A DNA stretch of 10,772 nucleotides from a virus. Position numbers and translations under genes: made by a program. The stretch is taken from UHGV virus genome UHGV-1443384, one strand, 5' to 3'. The notes below the pieces were generated by a model, which made no database searches, was not told the origin of the DNA, and saw nothing but the letters and a program-made list of their open reading frames with translations. This document shows, piece after piece, positions 2,002-10,581 of the stretch; position 1 is the first letter of the stretch, and each line of letters begins with the position of its first letter.

Positions 2002-2150
2002 GGTTGGTGTGTTGGTGTTATCTTTCCCTTTTTATTCATAGAGATAGAGCGAAAAACAAAACCACCACCACCAACCCGAAAAGGCTCATAAATAGCGAAA
2101 ATCCGCAAGGTCGCCGCCCCGTAGCCTGCCGGATCGCCGGAAAGGACCCG
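2002..2150 (-). other. Lambda-type cos site (cosQ-cosN-I1 conserved, cosB-like repeats diverged)
   Basis: Minus strand reads cgttctggctggcgggtcctttccggcgatccggcaggctacg GGGCGGCGACCT tgcggattttcgctatttatgag, near-identical to the lambda right end, the 12-nt cohesive end (plus 2108-2119) and the start of the left end. Inverted ACCACC/GGTGGT-rich repeats at 2002-2019 and 2060-2077 replace the lambda R sites. Confidence 0.85.
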
Positions 2151-2175
2151 CCAGCCAGAACGGGCCCTAATTTCA

Positions 2176-2520
2176 TCAACCAATCAACTTATTGCGTCCT
2201 TTCAGGGCATTACGCCTGGCGCGTTCAATCTTGAGGCATAACGCCGCATCAGGTTTTTCGGGGGTGGGAACAAGGCAATAATTTGATGCGCGCGGAATGT
2301 TGTTAATCCACGCAACAACCTCGCTTAAATACCATGCCTTGCGCCCTTTCGTAACCTGTACGCGTTCGGGGAACTCTCCGCGAGCCTCAAGGTTTAGCAA
2401 TGTGCGACGGCTAAGGGTTGTAAGCTCCACTACCTGATCCATATCAACAAGGCGCTCGCTTAAACTCATTTTGTCATCGATATCTAATAGCTCTCGTAGC
2501 TGACTATCTCTTTCAATCAT
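2176..2520 (-). CDS. AlpA-family HTH DNA-binding protein (114 aa), second copy in the element
   Basis: Motif VVELTTLSRRTLLNLEARGEFPERVQVTKGRKAWYLSEVVAWI fits the phage AlpA / excisionase-type HTH pattern. RBS GAGGT; start overlaps the stop of the upstream gene. Confidence 0.65.
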   Translation of the reverse strand: MIERDSQLRELLDIDDKMSLSERLVDMDQVVELTTLSRRTLLNLEARGEFPERVQVTKGRKAWYLSEVVAWINNIPRASNYCLVPTPEKPDAALCLKIERARRNALKGRNKLIG

Positions 2521-2529
2521 TCTCGTACC

Positions 2530-2871
2530 TCACACACGTGCCAGCGGCTGAACAGAAATACCTGAGCCAACAAACGCAGCAACTTTTGCTGATAGTTGTG
2601 TTACAGACTCAGGCCAGTTCAGAGCATCAACATTTAAGACGCCGGTTTTATAAACCTGAGCCTGCGTTTTTGTCGCTGTATCGATTTGTACAGCGGAAAC
2701 ATAAACAGCTTTGCCTGCGCTCGTTCCATCCCATACCACCAGTGCACCAGTTGCATCTTCTTGCATCAGTGGCGTAAATGCAGGAATTACCCCTTTATTA
2801 GCTGAAAATATCCCCAACGTAGTAACCAGTGCTTCAGTGCCAGCCATGAGTTCAGTGTAATGAGTAGCCAT
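2530..2871 (-). CDS. Head decoration protein, lambda gpD-like (113 aa)
   Basis: Aligns with lambda gpD (TPLM...LVVWDGT...YKTG...WPE...AAFVGSGISV vs TPLM...LVAWDGT...YKSG...WPE...TAFAGTAISIV). Strong RBS GGGGGAG; 9 bp after the capsid gene. Confidence 0.8.
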   Translation of the reverse strand: MATHYTELMAGTEALVTTLGIFSANKGVIPAFTPLMQEDATGALVVWDGTSAGKAVYVSAVQIDTATKTQAQVYKTGVLNVDALNWPESVTQLSAKVAAFVGSGISVQPLARV

Positions 2872-2880
2872 TGCTCCCCC

Positions 2881-3921
2881 TTAACCAATGCGAACGGTAA
2901 CAAAACGATTGATGCGGGCCGGTATTGGTTGCGGTGCGCTGTGCGTCTGTACATATTCAATAGCCGGATCACCTGGTACGATGTAATTTTTCGGCGCAAG
3001 TTCGGCTTTAGTCAGCCCCATTCTGATTAACTCAGGATCCTGAATGCCACCGTAGGCAACGATGCCCTGTAATGATGTGTTGCCAAGCACCATCAAATCA
3101 GGATCAAGGAAATATTTTTCTTTGCCGTCCTCGTCGGTATAACGTCCGCTATATACCACAATAGCAACATCGCCAACGTAACCCTTGAAGCTTACAGAAT
3201 CCCCAAGATTTTTCAGGGCCGTTTCAAGAACGGAATTAGATCCCCGTCGAGTATCAAGGCAATCTTTTACTGCTTTAAAGGCGCGGTATTTTTTCCATAC
3301 GTTGCGGCCCATTACGATGATATTTGTAGTACCTTCGCTGATTTCTGCGTACTCTTCGATGTCATCGTTTGGATCAAATGTTGATAAATCTCTACCGCTC
3401 CACTCCGTGCCGCCGGACTGCGTGATAATATTTTGTGGTTTTATATTCCAGTCCAGTTCATAACGTTCAATTCCATCACCTTCAATGATATTTTTCCCCG
3501 TTGTAACCGCCTGAACAGCAAGCCACTCAATACGCGCACGAATTGCCTGCGCTTGTCTTACTAACGCTCGCTTTATTTTGAAACTGCGTGATGAATATGC
3601 ATTGAATTGTTCAGGTGATACGCCTGGTTGACGAACGGCTATTTTATTTGGGTCGATACTACTTTTTGGCTTCATATAGCCAGGGCGAATTACTTTTGAT
3701 TCGTAGCCTTCATCGCGTGAGACTTTACTACCAACCATAGGGGAACAAAATGCAGCCATCGGGATGTCTGGATCGTCAATAATATCAAGCGCAATATCCC
3801 GCGTCTCAAATGTAACGACTCGCTTAAAAAACAGGTTTATAAATAAAGAATTAATCTGCCATTGAATATCTTCGGCATTAACAACCTGTATTAACATGGC
3901 TGGCGAATATAAATCACTCAT
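2881..3921 (-). CDS. Major capsid protein, lambda gpE-like (346 aa)
   Basis: Collinear similarity to lambda gpE over the full length (NIITQSGGTEWSGRDLSTFDPNDDIEEYA vs NNITQSGGTEWSKRDKSTYDPTDDIEAYA; FKAVKDCLDTRRGSNSVLETALKNLGDSVSFKGYVGDVAIVVYSG vs FKAVKEKLDTRRGSNSELETAVKDLGKAVSYKGMYGDVAIVVYSG). RBS AAGAGG. Confidence 0.9.
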   Translation of the reverse strand: MSDLYSPAMLIQVVNAEDIQWQINSLFINLFFKRVVTFETRDIALDIIDDPDIPMAAFCSPMVGSKVSRDEGYESKVIRPGYMKPKSSIDPNKIAVRQPGVSPEQFNAYSSRSFKIKRALVRQAQAIRARIEWLAVQAVTTGKNIIEGDGIERYELDWNIKPQNIITQSGGTEWSGRDLSTFDPNDDIEEYAEISEGTTNIIVMGRNVWKKYRAFKAVKDCLDTRRGSNSVLETALKNLGDSVSFKGYVGDVAIVVYSGRYTDEDGKEKYFLDPDLMVLGNTSLQGIVAYGGIQDPELIRMGLTKAELAPKNYIVPGDPAIEYVQTHSAPQPIPARINRFVTVRIG

Positions 3922-3973: not shown

Positions 3974-4002
3974 GTTTGGCATCTTTATGCATTGCTATGC
4001 AA
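3974..4002 (-). promoter_or_regulatory. Candidate promoter of the capsid-cos-TerS operon with a 13-bp palindrome in the spacer
   Basis: Minus strand TTGCAC-17-CATAAA (weak -10, suggesting activator dependence). Palindrome ATTGCtatGCAAT at 3981-3993 lies in the spacer. Confidence 0.3.
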
Positions 4003-4106
4003 TAGTGTGCAAAGTTTCAATCTTCGTTTATTTATCCGGCGTTACGTGTCATTCTGTACAGCGTTACAAGTTCAAAGACATAAATTATTCTCTTTGGTGA
4101 TGAAAG

Positions 4107-4193: not shown

Positions 4194-4616
4194 TTAAAAC
4201 GGTATGTTATCCCCGTACGGATCATCATTTCCCGCCTGTTGTTTTGCCCTGTTCAGCGCGTCAGTAGCCTGGCCCTGTTGACCTTTTTTGCCGCCCGGTT
4301 GCGCCGTTCGCGCACTGATTACGCTGTCTGCAATAACCTGCCAGCCCTGCCGCGTTTCCCCGTTCTGGCCTGTCCACTGGCTCACCTGCATGTTACCCGC
4401 CACGCTCACCAGTTCGCCTTTGTGGTGTTTTGCCAGTGCGTCGGCCTGTCTGCCAAACGCCAGGACAGATAACCACATCGTCGCCGTTCCGTCATCTGCC
4501 TGGCTGCACGGCAGGGGAACCGCCATACTCGCCATCGCCATTTGTGTCCCTTTGCTGGTGGTCTTTAACTGCGGGTCAGCCACCAGCCGCCCGTAAGCCG
4601 CTATCTGTGCTGTCAT
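4194..4616 (-). CDS. ssb: Single-stranded DNA-binding protein (SSB-like OB fold, 140 aa)
   Basis: N-terminal YGRLVADPQLKTTSKG and WLSVLAFGRQAD fit the SSB OB fold. Gly/Gln-rich linker and acidic tip DDPYGDNIPF resemble the SSB C-terminal DDDIPF tail. Confidence 0.75.
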   Translation of the reverse strand: MTAQIAAYGRLVADPQLKTTSKGTQMAMASMAVPLPCSQADDGTATMWLSVLAFGRQADALAKHHKGELVSVAGNMQVSQWTGQNGETRQGWQVIADSVISARTAQPGGKKGQQGQATDALNRAKQQAGNDDPYGDNIPF

Positions 4617-4904: not shown

Positions 4905-5131
4905 TTCACCTGTTCACCTTTTGAGATTTTCCCTTTTTATTCATAATGTTAAGGGGTGAACAGTTTCACAAAAACTATTCACCAACTGTTCACCACTGTT
5001 CACCCTTAAAGCTCAATAAATAATCAAAAAGGTGAACAGTGAATAGTTTGGTGAACAGTTCACAAATAACTGTTCACCATATAATATACTGATATAAAAG
5101 ATATTTATAACAGGGTGAACAGTGGTGAACA
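4905..5131. repeat. Replication origin with P4 alpha-type iterons (about 10 copies of TGTTCACC / GGTGAACA, both orientations) and AT-rich unwinding stretch
   Basis: Octamers at 4911, 4955, 4987, 4998, 5031, 5050, 5071, 5114 and 5124, plus partial copies. AT-rich block at 5080-5110. Immediately downstream of the primase gene. Confidence 0.8.
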
Positions 5132-5145
5132 GTTATTCCATAAGT

Positions 5146-6963
5146 TTAATTTTTGCTGTCGTCATTTGTGACCGATGCACATGATGGCATCCAGTCTTCT
5201 GAATCCTCTGTCAGTGTCACATTTGAACGCAAACCGTGCTTCGTTTTCCGTTTTATATACTCCCTGCCATATTCCGCCATTGCCCCCGGCATATCTTTAC
5301 CGAAGCGCGTCAGTGTTACAGGTTTACCGAATCCGTGTGCCCTCATATATGCCAGATAGGCGTGATAAAGATACCTGCGCGGACTGAACGGAATAATTTC
5401 GGCATTACCCACTAACAGACCATCACACATTACCGACGACATGAGATAGCCACAGAAGTCCACCAGCGAATCGCCCTCGCGTTTTATCACCAGAGCTTCT
5501 TCTGATTTCTGCTGCTCATACAGCAGGCGTTTAGCTTCGTCCTGGTCAGAAAAACGAGTAAGCAGATGGCGAATCACAACCGCCAGCTCTCCTTCTATTT
5601 TTTCTGCCAGCATGGGGTCGCGCTCGTTCTCCGGTACAACCTCCGAAAAATTGAATATCACCCGACGACGTGAGATCCCCCCGCTGCGGTCACTGAATGA
5701 CATGGCGTTATTGTTCACCGCCAGCACGACCGCCTGAATGCGTGTTGAGTAGGGGGCTTTATGCTTCGGGTCGATTGCCACCTTGTCACCGCCTGTAATA
5801 GCCTTAATTCCTGCGCCATCACCAGCGTAGCGGGTCATATCCGGCATGATAATCAGCGAAAAGCCAACCACTAACGCGCGTTCCCTTGCATCTTCCAGCG
5901 CCTTCATGCTTGCCGATACTGTGTTGGCCTTACCCGCCAGCATGGTGCAAATCTCCGCCATCACGCTTTTACCACTTCCCCCTGGACCTGTTACCTCAAT
6001 GAATAACTGCCAGTCGTACCGGTTCGCCAGCACCATGAATAATGCAGCCAGCACGCGATCCGTCTTGCGGTCATTCTCTGCCACCGAGCAGCGTAACCAC
6101 TTCCAGAAATTCGGCGCATGTGTTGCCAGCGTTTCCCCCTCTGCTGGTGGGCTGAAAGGTAATTCACTGGCAATTAACAACCAGTCGTTTTTGTTATGCT
6201 CCCGAAAATTACCTGTTCTGGTATCAAATACCCCGTTACTGAATCCAATCAGGTTACGGGCTGTATTCCCCATTACAGGCAAACTTAACTTCATGGTATC
6301 GACCGCCGATTTAATGGCGTTCTGCGAATAGCTGATCTCCGCATCAATGAAAATCTGTGCCATAGCTCGCTGTAATTCTTTATCCTGTACTGGCTCCCAT
6401 ACAACGCCGTTGTAATGGTGAACAGTGTCAGAGTCAGCATGAATCGCCAGTTCACCGCCATAATGTGCCAGGAGAACTTCGCCGCGTTGACTTGCTCCCA
6501 TCTGGTTAAGCGCCAGTGATGAAGCGTTATCGTCTTTTACCCGCTCTTTTTTCTTTACAGGCAGTTCAACTACCTTTTTCTTTTCCGTCAGCTCTCCCCG
6601 CTCACGTTCCAGATATTCGCGCCAGTTCTCCCGTTTCTGGCTGTGCATTCCTTCAGGGTAATAATCAGCATCCCTGACACCTGCCGCTGCCAGTTTCTGC
6701 CCGATGGTATTAACAAGCCCCGGACGCAATAACCCCGCCTGATAGAGACGCACGCGATAGCGTCCGTCCGGTACGATTTGCAGGTTGTCCAGTTCGGCAA
6801 GTTGTTGCTCTCCAAGCCAGACAGGTGGCACGTTATCGCCAGCCAGTCGCCCGTCCTGTTCCTGCCACTGTTTCGCATGTGCCCACGCATCACTACCCGC
6901 AAAAATGATGACTTCCGTCATTTTGTCACGCGGCTGGTGTTTTAAATTTGGCGCTTTTTTCAT
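5146..6963 (-). CDS. DNA primase/helicase, P4 alpha-like (PICI pri-rep type)
   Basis: Walker A motif VTGPGGSGKSV in the central region; large size; adjacent TGTTCACC iterons. Start set at the ATG (6963) preceded by GGAGAG and overlapping the upstream stop; the track ORF begins at GTG 6978. Confidence 0.85.
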   Translation of the reverse strand: MKKAPNLKHQPRDKMTEVIIFAGSDAWAHAKQWQEQDGRLAGDNVPPVWLGEQQLAELDNLQIVPDGRYRVRLYQAGLLRPGLVNTIGQKLAAAGVRDADYYPEGMHSQKRENWREYLERERGELTEKKKVVELPVKKKERVKDDNASSLALNQMGASQRGEVLLAHYGGELAIHADSDTVHHYNGVVWEPVQDKELQRAMAQIFIDAEISYSQNAIKSAVDTMKLSLPVMGNTARNLIGFSNGVFDTRTGNFREHNKNDWLLIASELPFSPPAEGETLATHAPNFWKWLRCSVAENDRKTDRVLAALFMVLANRYDWQLFIEVTGPGGSGKSVMAEICTMLAGKANTVSASMKALEDARERALVVGFSLIIMPDMTRYAGDGAGIKAITGGDKVAIDPKHKAPYSTRIQAVVLAVNNNAMSFSDRSGGISRRRVIFNFSEVVPENERDPMLAEKIEGELAVVIRHLLTRFSDQDEAKRLLYEQQKSEEALVIKREGDSLVDFCGYLMSSVMCDGLLVGNAEIIPFSPRRYLYHAYLAYMRAHGFGKPVTLTRFGKDMPGAMAEYGREYIKRKTKHGLRSNVTLTEDSEDWMPSCASVTNDDSKN

Positions 6964-7259
6964 TTCTGCTCTCTCCACGCGGCAATCATGTTTTTCAGTT
7001 CCTGTAGTTTTTTATCAACATCCATACATGACACATGGTTATTTCTGGAAGGCGGGATTTCCCGCCGGAATCTGCTAATAAAGATCTCCACGTTCAGCGA
7101 ACTATGAAATGAATAGCCATCACGAATAAAATACACACGGTCAAACATCAGTTCTTTTACCGTTACTCTGTTACCGTTCTTATCCAGATAAATAGCGCCG
7201 GGGATAATTTTGGGGTGTGCATAACCGCTGGCAGTCAAGCCAGATAAATATGTTCTCAT
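6960..7259 (-). CDS. Hypothetical protein (99 aa), coupled to the primase
   Basis: Track ORF; TGA stop overlaps the primase ATG. Occupies the position of the small genes upstream of alpha in P4-like elements. Confidence 0.55.
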   Translation of the reverse strand: MRTYLSGLTASGYAHPKIIPGAIYLDKNGNRVTVKELMFDRVYFIRDGYSFHSSLNVEIFISRFRREIPPSRNNHVSCMDVDKKLQELKNMIAAWREQK

Positions 7260-7265
7260 GATTAT

Positions 7266-7586
7266 TTATCCCCGATTTGAATCAGTATTCGCTTTCTTTA
7301 TGGCATTTAATGCATCTGTGGTATTTTCAATGGTGCACCGTAACGAAATATCAAACTGCCCAAGCATTGCCAGTAACAAACCGATATTACCCATATCAAT
7401 GCGCATGGCCTTTTCGTCATAGTCCTCATTTTCTGACGCATGCCACATCAGGCTACCAATTGACGCAATACCCATTGATATATTGTCAGTAGCCCCATCC
7501 GCAGCGGAATAAACCTTTTTAGCAATATCATGCTCACAGTTAAAATGCGGATTAATCAGGTACTGGTAATTTGACATATCAGGCAT
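7266..7586 (-). CDS. Hypothetical protein (106 aa)
   Basis: Track ORF; strong RBS AGGGGG before the ATG at 7586; acidic protein. Confidence 0.55.
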   Translation of the reverse strand: MPDMSNYQYLINPHFNCEHDIAKKVYSAADGATDNISMGIASIGSLMWHASENEDYDEKAMRIDMGNIGLLLAMLGQFDISLRCTIENTTDALNAIKKANTDSNRG

Positions 7587-7782
7587 GGCACACCCCCTGA
7601 CGAATACGGGCAGCGAATACCATCACGCAGCCAGCCGGAGATTGCTGGCGTGCTTCCTGTTCGCTGGTGGCCTCAATGGTAATCACGCGCGGTTGTGCCG
7701 TGCTCAGGGCGATAAAACGCCAGATGTATTTATTCAGGTTGTGCGAGTCCCGCCCTTGCGGGTGTGTGGTATGATTTCTCAT
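7579..7782 (-). CDS. Small protein (67 aa), possibly Icd-like (host cell-division inhibitor family); first gene of the primase operon
   Basis: Internal ATG at 7782 with RBS GAGGTA within the spurious 359-aa track ORF; stop overlaps the next start. C-terminus ...SPAGCVMVFAARIRQGVCHA recalls Icd-like proteins from memory only. Confidence 0.4.
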   Translation of the reverse strand: MRNHTTHPQGRDSHNLNKYIWRFIALSTAQPRVITIEATSEQEARQQSPAGCVMVFAARIRQGVCHA

Positions 7783-7880
7783 AGCTACCTCGATACTTTC
7801 GCTATCGTTGGTGGTTAGACGCCCTGCATGTGTTGCGAGCACTGCGGGGCGTTGCTTAATTTGAGTGACAAAACTCAAAC

Positions 7881-7959
7881 TGTGCGCACAGATTAAAATC
7901 ATGTGTGCGCACATGTCAATACTTAACATCTCATTTTTTTTGCTGTATTGTGTGCGCCC
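7881..7959. promoter_or_regulatory. Divergent promoter/operator switch: TGTGCGCACA palindromes at 23-bp phasing overlapping back-to-back promoters
   Basis: Perfect TGTGCGCACA at 7881-7890 and 7904-7913 (inside the 16-bp palindrome catgtgtgcgcacatg), half-site at 7950-7959. Minus strand TTGACA-17-TTTAAT has one operator in its spacer and one at the start site. Candidate plus promoter TTAACA-17-TATTGT. Confidence 0.5.
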
Positions 7960-7987
7960 ATAAAGTCCATTTAAGTGAGGTGCATCA

Positions 7988-8185
7988 ATGTCTAGCGGTA
8001 ACACAAACAACAAATCAGCAAAGAAAAATATTCGATTCCCACATGAGCTTATAGATGGGATTGATGCCAGCGTTGAACAAGAAAAATTAACTAATCCTAG
8101 TGCTAATTTTTCCGCATGGGTCTTAGATGCCTGTGGACGCAAATTAAAATATGAACAGCGCCGGAAGGCCAAAGAATCAGAATAA
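7988..8185 (+). CDS. YlcI/YnfO-family (DUF3950-like) small protein, possible ribbon-helix-helix regulator (65 aa)
   Basis: Strong RBS GTGAGGTG. Motif NIRFPHELIDGIDASVEQ...NFSAWVLDACGRKL resembles E. coli prophage YlcI/YnfO proteins (NIRFP...NFSAWV..AC.RRL), recalled from memory. Confidence 0.55.
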   Translation: MSSGNTNNKSAKKNIRFPHELIDGIDASVEQEKLTNPSANFSAWVLDACGRKLKYEQRRKAKESE

Positions 8186-8242
8186 TCACTATCAGCGCCG
8201 TGGTGTGAGTAACTACGGCGCATTGCTATGCAGGGCAACACA

Positions 8243-8416
8243 ATGACCGATAAAGAATTGACCAAAACATTATCACCGACACGGAAAAGACGGCGCAGAA
8301 AGATAGAGCATGAATCAGAAAGATTCGCACCTTGTTCGTTTGCTCTTGAGAAATTCCTTAAAGAGCGCAGGAAAAAACTCTCGTTGCAAACCTTGGAACG
8401 AACCGAATCTGACTGA
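8243..8416 (+). CDS. Hypothetical highly basic small protein (57 aa, RKRRRRK tract)
   Basis: Downstream of the YlcI-like gene in the same orientation; operon ends at the terminator at 8481-8508. Weak RBS; the start could be the ATG at 8228. Confidence 0.35.
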   Translation: MTDKELTKTLSPTRKRRRRKIEHESERFAPCSFALEKFLKERRKKLSLQTLERTESD

Positions 8417-8480
8417 TCAAATTGCCCACCAGCCAGCAAATCGCTATGATGTTCGGGCTTATGTTTAGTGTTTTCCCATT

Positions 8481-8508
8481 GGCGACCGCCCCCGGTCGCC
8501 TTTGTTTT
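8481..8508 (+). terminator. Rho-independent terminator, plus strand (GGCGACC gccccc GGTCGCC followed by TTTGTTTT)
   Basis: 7-bp GC stem with T-rich tail, between the plus-strand two-gene operon and the convergent alpA. Confidence 0.6.
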
Positions 8509-8527
8509 ATGTGTCATATGCTCCCCT

Positions 8528-8737
8528 TTACGCTGCCTTTCCTGAATTAATGCGATCCCGGCTTTTAACCCATTCCATAACCTCAGACTTAACCCAGCCA
8601 ACCGAACGACCTCCAAGACTGATACGGGAGGGAAAGCGGCCTTGTTTTTCCATCTCATAACGAGTTGTACGGCAAACGCCTGTTAGCTCTCTGCATTCTT
8701 TTTCACGGATTACACGATCTTCATTTATTTCGCGCAT
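8528..8737 (-). CDS. alpA: AlpA-family transcriptional regulator / excision-associated HTH protein (69 aa)
   Basis: Motif RVIREKECRELTGVCRTTRYEMEKQGRFPSRISLGGRSVGWVKSEVMEWV fits the AlpA pattern. Start taken at the internal ATG (8737); the track ORF extends to GTG 8821. Lies downstream of int as in PICI and P4-like elements. Confidence 0.75.
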   Translation of the reverse strand: MREINEDRVIREKECRELTGVCRTTRYEMEKQGRFPSRISLGGRSVGWVKSEVMEWVKSRDRINSGKAA

Positions 8738-9154
8738 AAAAAGCCCTACATAAAATTTACGTATAGAAATTTTTGTTTCGCTGTGGATATACGGGAAGGA
8801 ATACTTCTTAGCTTTTTTCACCTCTTAAATTGAATACGTAACCTTTCTGAACTTTATGTTCGTCAAAGTTCGCTAGAGTTTGCTGCTGTTCATAAAATCG
8901 TGTCACGAGTTTTTAAGCGACGCAACAAAAAATGTCGTCATTTGGTATGATACTTGAATTATCTTATTAAAAACAAATAGATAAACCATCAGGTGTTGGA
9001 ATAATCAAGAAACAGAAAATAAGAACTCAGAAGAAGATATTTCAATTTTTTCGATGGTTGACACATATAAAGTGAAGATATTTGCAGATATTTTCCGATA
9101 TTCTACGATTTATTCACGGCTGTAATCTCTTAAAGAAAAAACAGCCGTAATTTG

Positions 9155-10393
9155 TCAAGAATTTTGGGTGTAAATTCGCGGGGTCATAACAACGATTTTT
9201 TCATCATTGTTCTGGAGAAGCTCGAGACGGTCTACCCATAGATTAAGAGCATCACGTTTTGCATCAAGATAGCGGGAGTGGTTATAGACTCGTTGCATCC
9301 CTGGCATCTGGTGGGCTGTAAGCTGCTCGACAATATGCGGATCCACGCCTAAATCGTTCAGCATGGTTGTAAATGTGTGCCGGATATCGTGTAACGTCCA
9401 GGGGGCTTGATTAATTCGTCTGTGCGCTGTTCTTCCGTACTCTGCTACCGAAGATTGTCCTTTCAGTTCACCAAGCAATAAGCCCGTGTGTCTGTTCTGC
9501 TCCACCAGCTGCGTGATGAACGGCAAAATGCTTTCCGGTATTGGCCTGAATATGGCGACCTTCGTTTTGCTGTGCTCCTTCGGTACCGTCCAGAGCATTT
9601 CTTTAAAATCCCACTCCTGCACCTCAGAGCGCCTTAGCTCGGTGGTACGGCATCCGAAAACAATCAGGAGGCGAATTAGGGCGCTGTAGTACGGCGGGAA
9701 TATTTTGTCATCCAGGGCGCGGAGTAATTCCCCAAGCTCCTTGTTTGTTAGTACGCGCTCGCTCACTTCTGCTTTTTTTCCCACATCACCGACAACCATA
9801 TCATCAAGAACGTTGCTGATTGCGTATCGTCGTTTTCGGCAGTACTTAAGCGCCTGTTTACATACCTGTAGCAAAAATCCGGCAGATACTGGGCTTCGCT
9901 TTGCCATCTGGTCAAAACATGCCAACCAGTGCCGTAGCTCGCATTTTTCCAACGGCATAGCGCCAATCTGGCTGATTATGTGTTTATTGATCCGGCTTTT
10001 CAGTGATTCGTAGTCAGTGCGCTTTTCCTTTGCATACGATTCAAGCCAGTAAGTGAGCGCTTCCTTAACTGTCACGGGGGCTAACGCATCCTGTACAGCA
10101 CGATTAAGCTCATAGCGCGGATTTTTCCCCTCAGCCAGCCAAGCGCGACACTGTGCCGCTTTTTCCCTGGCTGCTTTCAGGCTCAGATCGGGATAATTGC
10201 CCAGTCTCAGACGTTCCGGTGATACCTGCCTACCAGTTCCAGCCCTGTAAGTGAAATACCAGGTTAACAGGCCGCTGGTGGAATGTCTTACGCTAAGATT
10301 GCCACCGTCATTAAAAAAGGCGTTTTTTGTGGTTGGTGATCCGCTTAATTTTCGTAAAAGAGTGTCGCTAAGTCTATGAATTGCGCTGCTCAT
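9155..10393 (-). CDS. int: Tyrosine site-specific integrase, P4-type (412 aa)
   Basis: C-terminal catalytic motifs WTLHDIRHTFTT (H-x-x-R) and RVYNHSRYL (catalytic Tyr); size and N-terminal arm-binding-type region typical of the P4 integrase family; adjacent to the attR arm repeats. Confidence 0.9.
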   Translation of the reverse strand: MSSAIHRLSDTLLRKLSGSPTTKNAFFNDGGNLSVRHSTSGLLTWYFTYRAGTGRQVSPERLRLGNYPDLSLKAAREKAAQCRAWLAEGKNPRYELNRAVQDALAPVTVKEALTYWLESYAKEKRTDYESLKSRINKHIISQIGAMPLEKCELRHWLACFDQMAKRSPVSAGFLLQVCKQALKYCRKRRYAISNVLDDMVVGDVGKKAEVSERVLTNKELGELLRALDDKIFPPYYSALIRLLIVFGCRTTELRRSEVQEWDFKEMLWTVPKEHSKTKVAIFRPIPESILPFITQLVEQNRHTGLLLGELKGQSSVAEYGRTAHRRINQAPWTLHDIRHTFTTMLNDLGVDPHIVEQLTAHQMPGMQRVYNHSRYLDAKRDALNLWVDRLELLQNNDEKIVVMTPRIYTQNS

Positions 10394-10416: not shown

Positions 10417-10484
10417 ATTAACTACACCATTGACTACACCGTGCATCGTACAAGGGCAAACAGTGACGAACAAGGGCGAACAAG
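10417..10484. promoter_or_regulatory. Integrase arm-type binding repeats, right arm (ATTAACTACACC, ATTGACTACACC, CGAACAAG repeats) overlapping the int promoter region
   Basis: Same motif pair as 171-227; CGAACAAG at 10467 and 10477, with degenerate copies at 10446 and 10540-10557. Confidence 0.45.
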
Positions 10485-10560: not shown

Positions 10561-10581
10561 TGATAAATAACTATCATCTAT
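10561..10581. repeat. Putative attR core (direct repeat tgataaataactatcatctat)
   Basis: 19 of 21 identity with 83-103; lies on the outer side of the right arm repeats. Confidence 0.45.

Follow-up and report, generated by a model that had tools for sequence, protein, structure and literature searches.

The segment between positions 2530 and 3921 of a viral genome of 10,772 nucleotides (UHGV-1443384, the whole of which is referred to here as the window) raises the question of what a small satellite gains from a shell protein and a decoration protein of phage lambda type when the rest of the head module is missing. A preliminary description of this DNA had proposed that a helper-dependent island of about 10.5 kb carries full-length homologs of lambda gpE and gpD in reversed order, and that these either redirect capsid size or interfere with the helper by poisoning capsid assembly. 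Both open reading frames were found exactly where that description had placed them, on the minus strand and with the sizes given: a major capsid protein of the lambda gpE family (E, 346 aa, 2881-3921) and a head decoration (cement) protein of the lambda gpD/phage 21 SHP family (D, 113 aa, 2530-2871). RefSeq already annotates both genes.

In profile searches against the lambda families, both proteins scored above the Pfam gathering cut-offs. E matched PF03864 (Phage_cap_E) over profile positions 9-327 of 329 (E=2.7e-41; 142.2 bits, cut-off 22.9) and PHROG 29, 'major head protein' (E=5.6e-89), and BLASTP aligned it with lambda gpE at 43% identity over 336 aa (E=2e-86). D matched PF02924 (HDPD; E=2.6e-16; 60.2 bits, cut-off 29.1) and PHROG 49, 'head decoration' (E=6.7e-27), and was 41% identical to lambda gpD over 78 aa (E=4e-18). 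The proposed full-length homology to gpE and gpD is borne out by these matches. Among PDB entries, E matched 3BQW (E=1.9e-121), the crystal structure of the capsid protein c1499 of the island EcCICFT073, and D matched the SHP structure 1TD0 (E=8.7e-17). An AlphaFold2 model of E (pLDDT 82, pTM 0.83) could be superimposed on the crystal structure of lambda gpE (7SJ5) with a TM score of 0.91 and on 3BQW with 0.94, and the fold of E is predicted to be complete and of the HK97/lambda type.

Transcription in the window runs from E to D, whereas in lambda D (5747-6079) precedes E (6135-7160), as the preliminary description had stated. The pair thus shares protein families and fold with lambda gpE/gpD and phage 21 SHP but differs from them in sequence (39-43% identity), in gene order and in the absence of B, C, Nu3, FI and FII. 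The E and D reading frames of the window are in frame with each other across a 9-nt gap, and one database protein (P0002, 463 aa) consists of fused E and D domains. Fusion or readthrough of the pair was considered and dropped, since coordinate arithmetic showed that the in-frame relation is absent in CFT073 and in Serratia. Upstream of E lies an AT-rich spacer of 272 nt (composition profile) that separates it from an SSB gene. Promoter and operator consensus scans of the region upstream of E stayed at background level, and when this region was aligned for five islands, three shared a weak 'CTATTGCA...TTGCAT' motif.

The island itself is 10,478 bp long and is located wholly within the window, between clpS and cspD. 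Its junctions were mapped against the empty site of E. coli K-12, which has a single att copy between clpS and yljB/cspD. The 21-bp core repeats (repeat family D8; attL, 83-103; attR, 10561-10581) have the sequence TGATAGATAACTATCAT(T/C)TAT. A 25-bp repeat (171-195 and 10417-10441) was ruled out as att by the same mapping and is an internal repeat. In a 99.4%-identical copy of the island, whose E and D proteins are WP_001281836.1 and WP_000190775.1, the flanks are again clpS and cspD; these are chromosomal, and therefore no head genes are hidden just outside the window.

All major genes of the island, including those described below, are on the minus strand. A tyrosine integrase (int, 9155-10393; PF00589, E=2e-18; Arm-DNA-bind_3, E=1.4e-16) is adjoined by an AlpA regulator (8528-8821; PF05930, E=1.6e-17), and these are followed by a primase/helicase (pri-rep, 5146-6978) with D5_N, DUF5906 and Pox_D5 domains (PHROG 864, E=1.9e-191). 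Iterons (GGTGAACAGT repeats; repeat families D3, D5 and D14) downstream of the primase gene, at 4952-5134, form a probable ori, in agreement with the position of the PICI ori described previously (PMC6092414). The gene upstream of E encodes the SSB (4194-4616; PF00436, E=4e-16), and directly downstream of D is the gene of a second AlpA-like HTH protein (AlpA2, 2176-2520; PF05930, E=8.7e-8). A conserved PICI protein of 93 aa (1077-1358; PHROG 1561, E=1.2e-56) ends the packaging module.

Within this module, a Nu1-type small terminase subunit (TerS, 1432-1986; PF07471, E=9.3e-24; PHROG 57, E=3.2e-53) adjoins a lambda-type cos region (2037-2186, minus strand) that was located by local alignment to the joined lambda ends. 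The cosN of the window contains an exact 12-nt match, GGGCGGCGACCT, at 2108-2119 (0.03 expected by chance); cosQ and cosN are conserved relative to lambda and the cosB side has diverged. TerS is 37% identical to lambda Nu1 over residues 3-180, the C-terminal half included. RefSeq places the TerS start at 1974. We considered TerS as an Rpp and rejected this assignment, as it has no BLAST similarity to RppA and is instead a full-length Nu1 homolog. The heading of the preliminary description was silent on this small terminase and the cos site beside it.

Pfam and PHROG scans of the sizeable open reading frames of the window gave no match to a portal, protease, scaffold, TerL or tail gene, as had been claimed, and E, D and TerS were the only virion or packaging functions that they detected in the island. 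The genes that characterize capsid-forming PICIs (portal, protease, connectors/adaptors, HNH, TerL) were absent from the island ORFs. Likewise, none of these ORFs had a Pfam or PHROG match to Sid, Psu or Delta; a P4-like set, with Sid, Psu and a Delta/Ogr-type activator, is lacking, and the decoration protein belongs to the gpD family. The view that the element is neither a capsid-forming PICI nor P4-like is upheld by these results, and its att-bounded length and EcCICFT073-like synteny agree with a helper-dependent satellite of the proposed size. Classical Gram-negative PICIs are about 10-15 kb long and have no lysis genes, tail genes or complete head module. The island has this size and content, together with an att pair and empty site, int-alpA, a primase with iterons, and cos with a specificity factor. 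The segment under study can be identified with near certainty as the capsid and head-decoration genes of an EcCICFT073-like, cos-type PICI of the classical Gram-negative group. Capsid-forming PICIs (EcCIEDL933; bioRxiv 10.1101/2022.09.08.507074) have an int-alpA-rep backbone of the same type and also encode a capsid protein. However, they have their own portal, protease, head-tail connectors, HNH, TerS, TerL and small capsids, and of these the island of the window shares only TerS.

Such pairs are already known in E. coli PICIs. EcCICFT073, a classical PICI of this species, encodes the capsid protein c1499 and the head decoration protein c1500, both of which were described, and their genes deleted, in a study of 2018 (Fillol-Salom et al. 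2018, PMC6092414), and the c1499 structure 3BQW has been public since 2008. Of 29 reference Gram-negative PICIs, 21 are reported to carry a capsid gene (PMC10111431). The novelty implied by the preliminary description is therefore lost, as the E-D pair is the standard, published layout of classical Gram-negative PICIs. The two islands have the same gene order (primase, SSB, E, D, one gene, packaging-specificity gene, 93-aa protein), and their proteins belong to the same satellite clade, with identities of 55% for E, 54% for D and 78% for the 93-aa protein encoded at the same position. Both have a lambda-type cosN, and both lack portal, protease, TerL and tail genes. They differ in that a full-length Nu1-type TerS in the window occupies the place of RppA in EcCICFT073 (no detectable similarity), that the gene after D encodes an AlpA-like protein in the window and a 137-aa hypothetical protein in EcCICFT073, and that the insertion sites are clpS/cspD and beside phoQ, respectively. 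In addition, the island of the window has neither the PerC gene nor the small ORF upstream of E. What the present analysis adds is a satellite E-D clade, a constant E-then-D order in the sampled satellites and strong purifying selection.

Homologs of E formed two groups, satellite proteins with at least 51% and phage proteins with at most 43% identity to the window protein. Members of the former group came from E. coli, Salmonella, Serratia, Edwardsiella, Cedecea, Scandinavium and Lelliottia, and a midpoint-rooted neighbor-joining tree placed 47 satellite-type sequences apart from 64 phage-type sequences. A search of a phage collection returned no record above 43% identity to the window E (best, 41-43%). 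E was followed by D, with no portal or protease, in all eight satellite contexts examined (the window, L001, L003 and L005-L009), and D was followed by E inside full head modules in each of the four phage or prophage contexts examined. The search turned up no phage from which the E-then-D order could have come and no close homolog in phages; in the phage contexts examined, D precedes E. The satellite E-D pairs constitute a clade of their own across Enterobacterales, which is old and lies apart from the E and D of all phages. Between satellite and phage clades, E differs most in the N-arm, the base of the E-loop, the spine helix and the C-terminal strands of the P-domain, and least in the A-domain. 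E and D diverge in step (55%/54% identity to CFT073, 43%/41% to lambda). Even in a helper-embedded satellite, E and D are only 47% and 41% identical to the pair of the surrounding prophage.

Among diverged relatives, those closest to the window in the E-D-AlpA2 cassette are helper-embedded PICIs (HE-PICIs, 11capE type; PMC10111431). The cassette of one of these, L005, is 82% identical in DNA (amino acid identities: E, 84%; D, 96%; AlpA2, 76%), and a Serratia island (L008) also has this cassette, with a PF05930 gene after D. HE-PICIs insert in a late gene of the helper prophage, which in L005 is the E gene that is split by the insertion, whereas the island of the window occupies a chromosomal site. 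L005 also differs in having DUF262/HEPN genes and no TerS. Relative to the HE-PICI homologs, dN/dS was 0.084 for E (dS 1.26) and 0.059 for D (dS 0.27); it was 0.07-0.13 for E inside the CFT073 clade and 0.06-0.23 over the satellite pairs with unsaturated dS. Thus, E and D are under strong purifying selection. Sampled E. coli and Serratia islands are located at chromosomal sites, and their E and D copies are under purifying selection as well. Roughly one in five complete E. coli genomes gave a DNA match to the E-D pair, and DNA searching located roughly 1,000 E. coli loci. Intact reading frames, low dN/dS and a complete predicted fold indicate that E and D are functional genes and not relics.

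Published tests with EcCICFT073 bear on this function. With lambda, packaged DNA was all phage-sized, and deletion of c1499 or c1500 neither restored lambda plaques nor reduced transfer of the island (PMC6092414). The helpers in the transfer tests were lambda, phi80 and CFT073 phage 4 only, and the interference assay was run with rppA present (PMC6092414). RppA by itself blocks lambda (PMC6739421); with rppA in place, a second interference factor would therefore be masked. Given the few helpers and the presence of rppA, these tests weaken the ideas of size redirection and poisoning and do no more than that. Replacement of c1499 by cat increased EcCICFT073 transfer (1e5 vs 8e3 transductants/ml), which the authors explained by island size (PMC6092414). 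Our literature search found no functional assignment for PICI E and D later than 2018, and in a paper of September 2025 from the same field the genes behind small capsids in Gram-negative PICIs are still given as unknown (PMC12409344).

The explanation that we favor, and which we place slightly on the probable side, joins the PICI capsid/decoration identity with a co-adapted structural E-D pair that acts on helper parts. Its mechanistic component, in which E and D are true structural proteins adapted to each other, we hold less firmly, a little short of even. TerL, portal, protease/scaffold, head completion proteins and tails have to come from a lambdoid helper. E would assemble a shell on the helper portal and scaffold, by itself or mixed with helper gpE, and D would bind its cognate E and cement this shell after PICI concatemers have filled it. 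A T=7 head would hold about four island copies (41.9 kb, 86% of the lambda genome). By making part of its own head, the satellite might become independent of helper E/D alleles or amounts. With laboratory, lambda-like helpers the satellite proteins would be redundant with helper E and D, which would explain why deletion of the EcCICFT073 homologs had no phenotype. The N-terminus of lambda gpD binds the expanded shell, and gpD is needed only when heads are filled above about 80% of genome length; the retention of D therefore argues that E-containing shells become filled with DNA. Co-adaptation is argued by the parallel divergence of E and D, by the clade-specific regions of E and by a pair that is distinct even in a helper-embedded satellite. 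On the other side, redundancy leaves the strong, long-term purifying selection in need of some benefit, the satellite has no scaffold, the model takes for granted that its E is compatible with helper Nu3, C and B, and the replacement of c1499 by cat raised transfer.

It is also possible, though unlikely, that the pair redirects capsid size with particular helpers. Satellite E, alone or in particular capsomers like Ccm, would then drive a smaller shell on the helper portal, which fits one or two island copies and shuts out the helper genome, and D would stabilize this shell. In SaPIbov5, Ccm is a capsid homolog that occupies pentamers and gives T=4 procapsids in place of the prolate phi12 heads (PMC8569155), and small capsids together with a capsid homolog are known for PmCI172 (PMC6092414; PMC6893505). 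Like the island of the window, SaPIbov5 is a cos-type satellite with an HK97-fold homolog of the helper capsid protein and no remaining head module. However, the role of Ccm has been demonstrated, no decoration partner of Ccm was described (PMC8569155), neither the hosts nor the protein families are close relatives, and size redirection was not seen for the E. coli homolog in EcCICFT073 with lambda. SaPIpT1028 is found in large capsids with 80alpha and its size-redirection factor, Rcm, acts on the capsid of another phage, phi7206 (PMC12409344), and therefore a negative result with one helper is not general. The concentration of clade divergence of E in the N-arm, E-loop and spine helix is consistent with redirection, as is the close fit of two copies (2 x 10.48 kb = 20.96 kb) to the ~21 kb that a lambda-like shell of T=4 would hold under T^1.5 scaling of capacity. 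On the other hand, the empirical P4/P2 capacity ratio of about 0.35 gives ~17 kb for a T=4 shell, a poor fit for one or two copies, and four copies of the sampled islands (about 10.3-11.3 kb, a rough estimate from gene tables) fit the T=7 lambda head. The earlier argument from T=3 or T=4 shells thus holds in that one or two copies could fit, but it depends on the scaling and the arithmetic does not discriminate. The phage-sized DNA with lambda and EcCICFT073, and the lack of transfer loss by lambda, phi80 and CFT073 phage 4 on deletion of c1499 or c1500, speak against redirection and weaken this part of the preliminary description within a limited helper set. With a similarly low probability, natural lambdoid helpers other than these three may allow E-D pairs to build satellite-specific shells on the helper portal, and such shells could be smaller heads with one or two island copies. 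If so, satellite E-D would correspond in Gram-negative hosts to Ccm, but with two components, and would be intermediate between PICIs that hijack capsids and those that form them.

Capsid poisoning appears improbable. Satellite E and D would co-assemble with E and D of helper or non-helper phages and spoil their heads, and the supposed gain is protection of the host population or an advantage to the satellite. That PICIs commonly interfere with helpers and carry defence functions (PMC6092414) is in line with this proposal, but it is not obvious why a poison should require a conserved cement protein that co-evolves with it or a complete, highly conserved fold, and the island's own transfer requires working heads. 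Lambda interference was not relieved when c1499 or c1500 was deleted, which weakens the claim, although an additive effect would have been masked in this test because rppA was intact and RppA alone blocks lambda (PMC6739421). The closest diverged E-D relative (82% DNA identity) resides in an HE-PICI whose insertion interrupts the capsid gene of a prophage, and capture of helper late genes with a back-up function has been discussed (PMC10111431). It might then be that E and D are captured late genes that serve as back-up in a helper-embedded lifestyle, some relatives inserting into the helper's own E gene, and have no role in chromosomal islands. We consider this slightly more doubtful than poisoning: the satellite clade is an old one, separate from every phage E and D, purifying selection also acts on the chromosomal E. 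coli and Serratia copies, and the 47% identity between nested satellite and helper E is inconsistent with recent capture. Least probable is that the pair is what is left of a once complete head module, without function and in decay. The missing phenotype of the EcCICFT073 homologs would suit such remnants, but neither reading frame is disrupted, different genera retain the same synteny, the predicted fold lacks no part, and the low dN/dS where dS is unsaturated effectively refutes this possibility.

The puzzle that emerges is a co-diverging shell and cement pair that is kept across Enterobacterales even though its deletion lacks a laboratory phenotype. Its solution would tell how far classical PICIs have gone towards capsids of their own, and whether E and D influence the range of helpers or the size of the capsid.

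The segment at 2530-3921 contains two adjacent minus-strand ORFs, with exactly the coordinates and lengths given in the preliminary description. The first in transcription order (2881-3921, 346 aa, designated E) matched Phage_cap_E in Pfam over nearly the entire profile (E=2.7e-41) and PHROG 29, 'major head protein' (E=5.6e-89). The second (2530-2871, 113 aa, designated D) matched HDPD (E=2.6e-16) and PHROG 49, 'head decoration' (E=6.7e-27). In direct comparison with lambda, E was 43% identical to the capsid protein gpE over 336 residues with three gaps, and D was 41% identical to gpD over the C-terminal 78 residues. An AlphaFold2 model of E (41-sequence alignment as input; pLDDT 82, pTM 0.83) could be superimposed on the gpE crystal structure 7SJ5 with a TM score of 0.91. 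The profile searches and structure prediction that had been suggested thus bear out the proposed homology to gpE and gpD. The gene coordinates also confirm the reversed order, as in lambda D (5747-6079) lies ahead of E (6135-7160).

D begins in the frame in which E ends, with 9 nt between the stop and start codons (2872-2883), and a 463-aa protein from one assembled contig (P0002) is an E-D fusion. Arithmetic on gene coordinates showed that the frame relation is absent in CFT073 and Serratia, so it is probably incidental. A weakly conserved motif with partial dyad, CTATTGCA...TTGCAT, was observed at 3985-4015, ~60-90 nt upstream of the E start. It also precedes E in a helper-embedded PICI (L005) and in the Serratia plymuthica island (L008), whereas in CFT073 and Edwardsiella it is absent and a small ORF abuts E instead.

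Comparison with the empty site of K-12 placed the att core, a 21-bp repeat in the clpS-yljB/cspD intergenic region, at 83-103 and 10561-10581. The island is 10,478 bp with both ends inside the window, and its 99.4%-identical copy in strain WP9-S17-ESBL-11 (L001) is flanked by clpS and cspD. The possibility that portal, protease and TerL genes lie just beyond the window was therefore not borne out. A 25-bp direct repeat, ATTAACTACACCATT[A/G]ACTACACCG, occurs just inside each island end (171-195 and 10417-10441), ~90-145 bp from the att cores. It was considered as the att site and rejected by the K-12 comparison, which showed it to be internal; these repeats may be arm-type sites of the integrase.

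Nearly all sizeable island genes are on the minus strand, including those for an integrase (9155-10393), AlpA (8528-8821), a D5-type primase/helicase (5146-6978), SSB (4194-4616), a second AlpA-like protein directly downstream of D (2176-2520), a Nu1-family small terminase (TerS; 1432-1986; 37% identity to lambda Nu1 over residues 3-180) and a conserved 93-aa protein (1077-1358). A DUF4222 protein follows AlpA and precedes the primase/helicase, and iterons (GGTGAACAGT) are found at 4952-5134. The second AlpA-family gene also follows D in L005 (8604-8987, 76% identity) and in the Serratia island (11403-11756). The window has an intact SSB gene, whereas that of L001 (12195-12617) is annotated as a pseudogene interrupted by a stop codon; in the same copy, an unrelated 399-nt stretch replaces the 299 nt at 7857-8155. 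A 359-aa minus-strand ORF (7579-8658) is probably spurious because it lacks a family match and overlaps short plus-strand RefSeq genes (YlcI/YnfO, DUF3950).

This gene order is that of EcCICFT073, the model Gram-negative PICI, from E. coli CFT073: DUF4222, primase, small ORF, SSB, capsid, head decoration, one gene, RppA and the 93-aa protein. E and D are 55% and 54% identical to its c1499 and c1500 products, respectively, and the 93-aa proteins are 78% identical. The two islands differ in the gene after D, which in EcCICFT073 encodes an unrelated 137-aa protein, and in the packaging-specificity gene, which there is RppA (144 aa). The crystal structure of the c1499 protein, public since 2008 (PDB 3BQW), matched E with E=1.9e-121 and a TM score of 0.94 to our model. 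Fillol-Salom et al. (2018) described c1499 as a putative capsid protein, likened explicitly to SaPIbov5 Ccm, and c1500 as a head decoration protein (PMC6092414), an account repeated in the review of Dokland (2019; PMC6893505). Of 29 reference Gram-negative PICIs, 21 carry a major capsid gene, the commonest of their late genes (PMC10111431), and RefSeq names the pair in the 99.4%-identical copy 'major capsid protein' and 'head decoration protein'. The contrasts drawn previously with capsid-forming PICIs, which also encode portal, protease, connectors, HNH and TerL, and with P4 were right; Sid, Psu and Delta had no Pfam or PHROG match among the island ORFs. However, these contrasts define a classical PICI and not a new class. 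The feature was already known: classical Gram-negative PICIs are well documented to carry this capsid/decoration pair.

DNA related to the E-D segment was detected in 1,084 of 5,426 complete E. coli genomes, 395 of which cover at least 80% of it. All sampled E. coli contexts were PICIs: one in the chromosome next to phoQ, one from O157:H7 whose TerS is of the Nu1 type, and one embedded in a helper, where it splits a prophage capsid gene. E homologs formed two groups, with 51-98% and at most 43% identity to the window protein; the former occurred in E. coli, Salmonella, Serratia, Edwardsiella, Cedecea, Scandinavium and Lelliottia. A midpoint-rooted neighbor-joining tree of 111 full-length sequences separated 47 satellite from 64 phage-side proteins, the latter including lambda gpE and also P0046, a homolog 59% identical to E. 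No record in the phage collection exceeded 43% identity to E. The Serratia island has the order int-AlpA-DUF927-E-D-AlpA. In an Edwardsiella tarda contig (L009, 1-15626), a lambdoid prophage has its portal gene interrupted by a PICI, so that satellite E-then-D and prophage D-then-E pairs are at most 5 kb apart, with only 47% (E) and 41% (D) identity between them. The group split and these two contexts indicate that the reversed order is a trait common to the satellite lineage and not a local rearrangement.

Against the helper-embedded copy, dN/dS was 0.084 for E (dS 1.26) and 0.059 for D, and within the CFT073 clade it was 0.07-0.13 for E. E and D are thus not relics. When divergence was mapped onto the secondary structure of the AlphaFold2 model, agreement between satellite and phage clade consensuses was lowest in the N-arm, E-loop base, spine helix and C-terminal P-domain strands, and highest in the A-domain. 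The alignment of 2530-3921 with L005 (8999-10390) is a mosaic: DNA identity is 70-77% over the 5' portion of E but 91-98% over its 3' end and all of D; amino-acid differences in E cluster at residues 1-50, 101-125 and 176-225. This pattern suggests recombination within the capsid gene.

A cosN identical to that of lambda (GGGCGGCGACCT, 2108-2119; 0.03 matches expected by chance) lies between the second AlpA gene and terS. Within the surrounding region (2037-2186), the cosQ flank and ~25 nt past cosN align with lambda, whereas the sequence departs from it at the cosB position. A 69-aa minus-strand ORF (1974-2183; RefSeq hypothetical protein WP_001299375.1) overlaps the site; a Pfam search with it gave no match, and it may not be a real gene. 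The lambda-type cos site is directly upstream of a full-length Nu1 homolog, and therefore the island uses its own TerS where EcCICFT073 uses RppA. The C-terminal half of this homolog resembles that of Nu1, which, according to the discussion in PMC6739421, recruits gpA. The lambda-type cosQ-cosN, diverged cosB and cognate Nu1 homolog make up a clear packaging context and indicate that TerL, portal and head machinery of a lambdoid helper package the island. Four island copies amount to 41.9 kb, or 86% of the lambda genome, which is within the lambda packaging window and consistent with the phage-sized DNA seen for EcCICFT073.

It is possible, with a likelihood somewhat short of even, that the role of the pair is structural: E would assemble on the helper portal and scaffold, D would cement the filled head, and both would have been redundant with the helper's own proteins in published tests. 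We favor this reading because a complete fold, strong sequence constraint and a co-diverging cement protein are retained. In lambda, gpD attaches to shells only after their expansion and is important only when heads are well filled. The two mechanisms proposed in the preliminary description, capsid-size redirection and poisoning of helper capsid assembly, found no support in the homologous EcCICFT073, although those tests were not exhaustive. There, DNA packaged with lambda was all phage-sized, and deletion of either c1499 or c1500 neither restored lambda plaque formation nor reduced transfer by the resident helper (PMC6092414).

Helper-specific size redirection of the Ccm type (PMC8569155) is rather doubtful; in its favor, only three helpers were covered, and for SaPIpT1028, which is packaged in large capsids with 80alpha, the redirection factor has the capsid of another phage as its target. 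Poisoning is more doubtful still, as it is weakened by the deletion data, though these were obtained with rppA present, and it leaves D unexplained. Given an old clade with members at chromosomal sites, and given the selection data, it is unlikely that E and D are simply decaying or that they serve as a back-up linked to a helper-embedded way of life. The value that remains in this feature lies in the role of these conserved genes.
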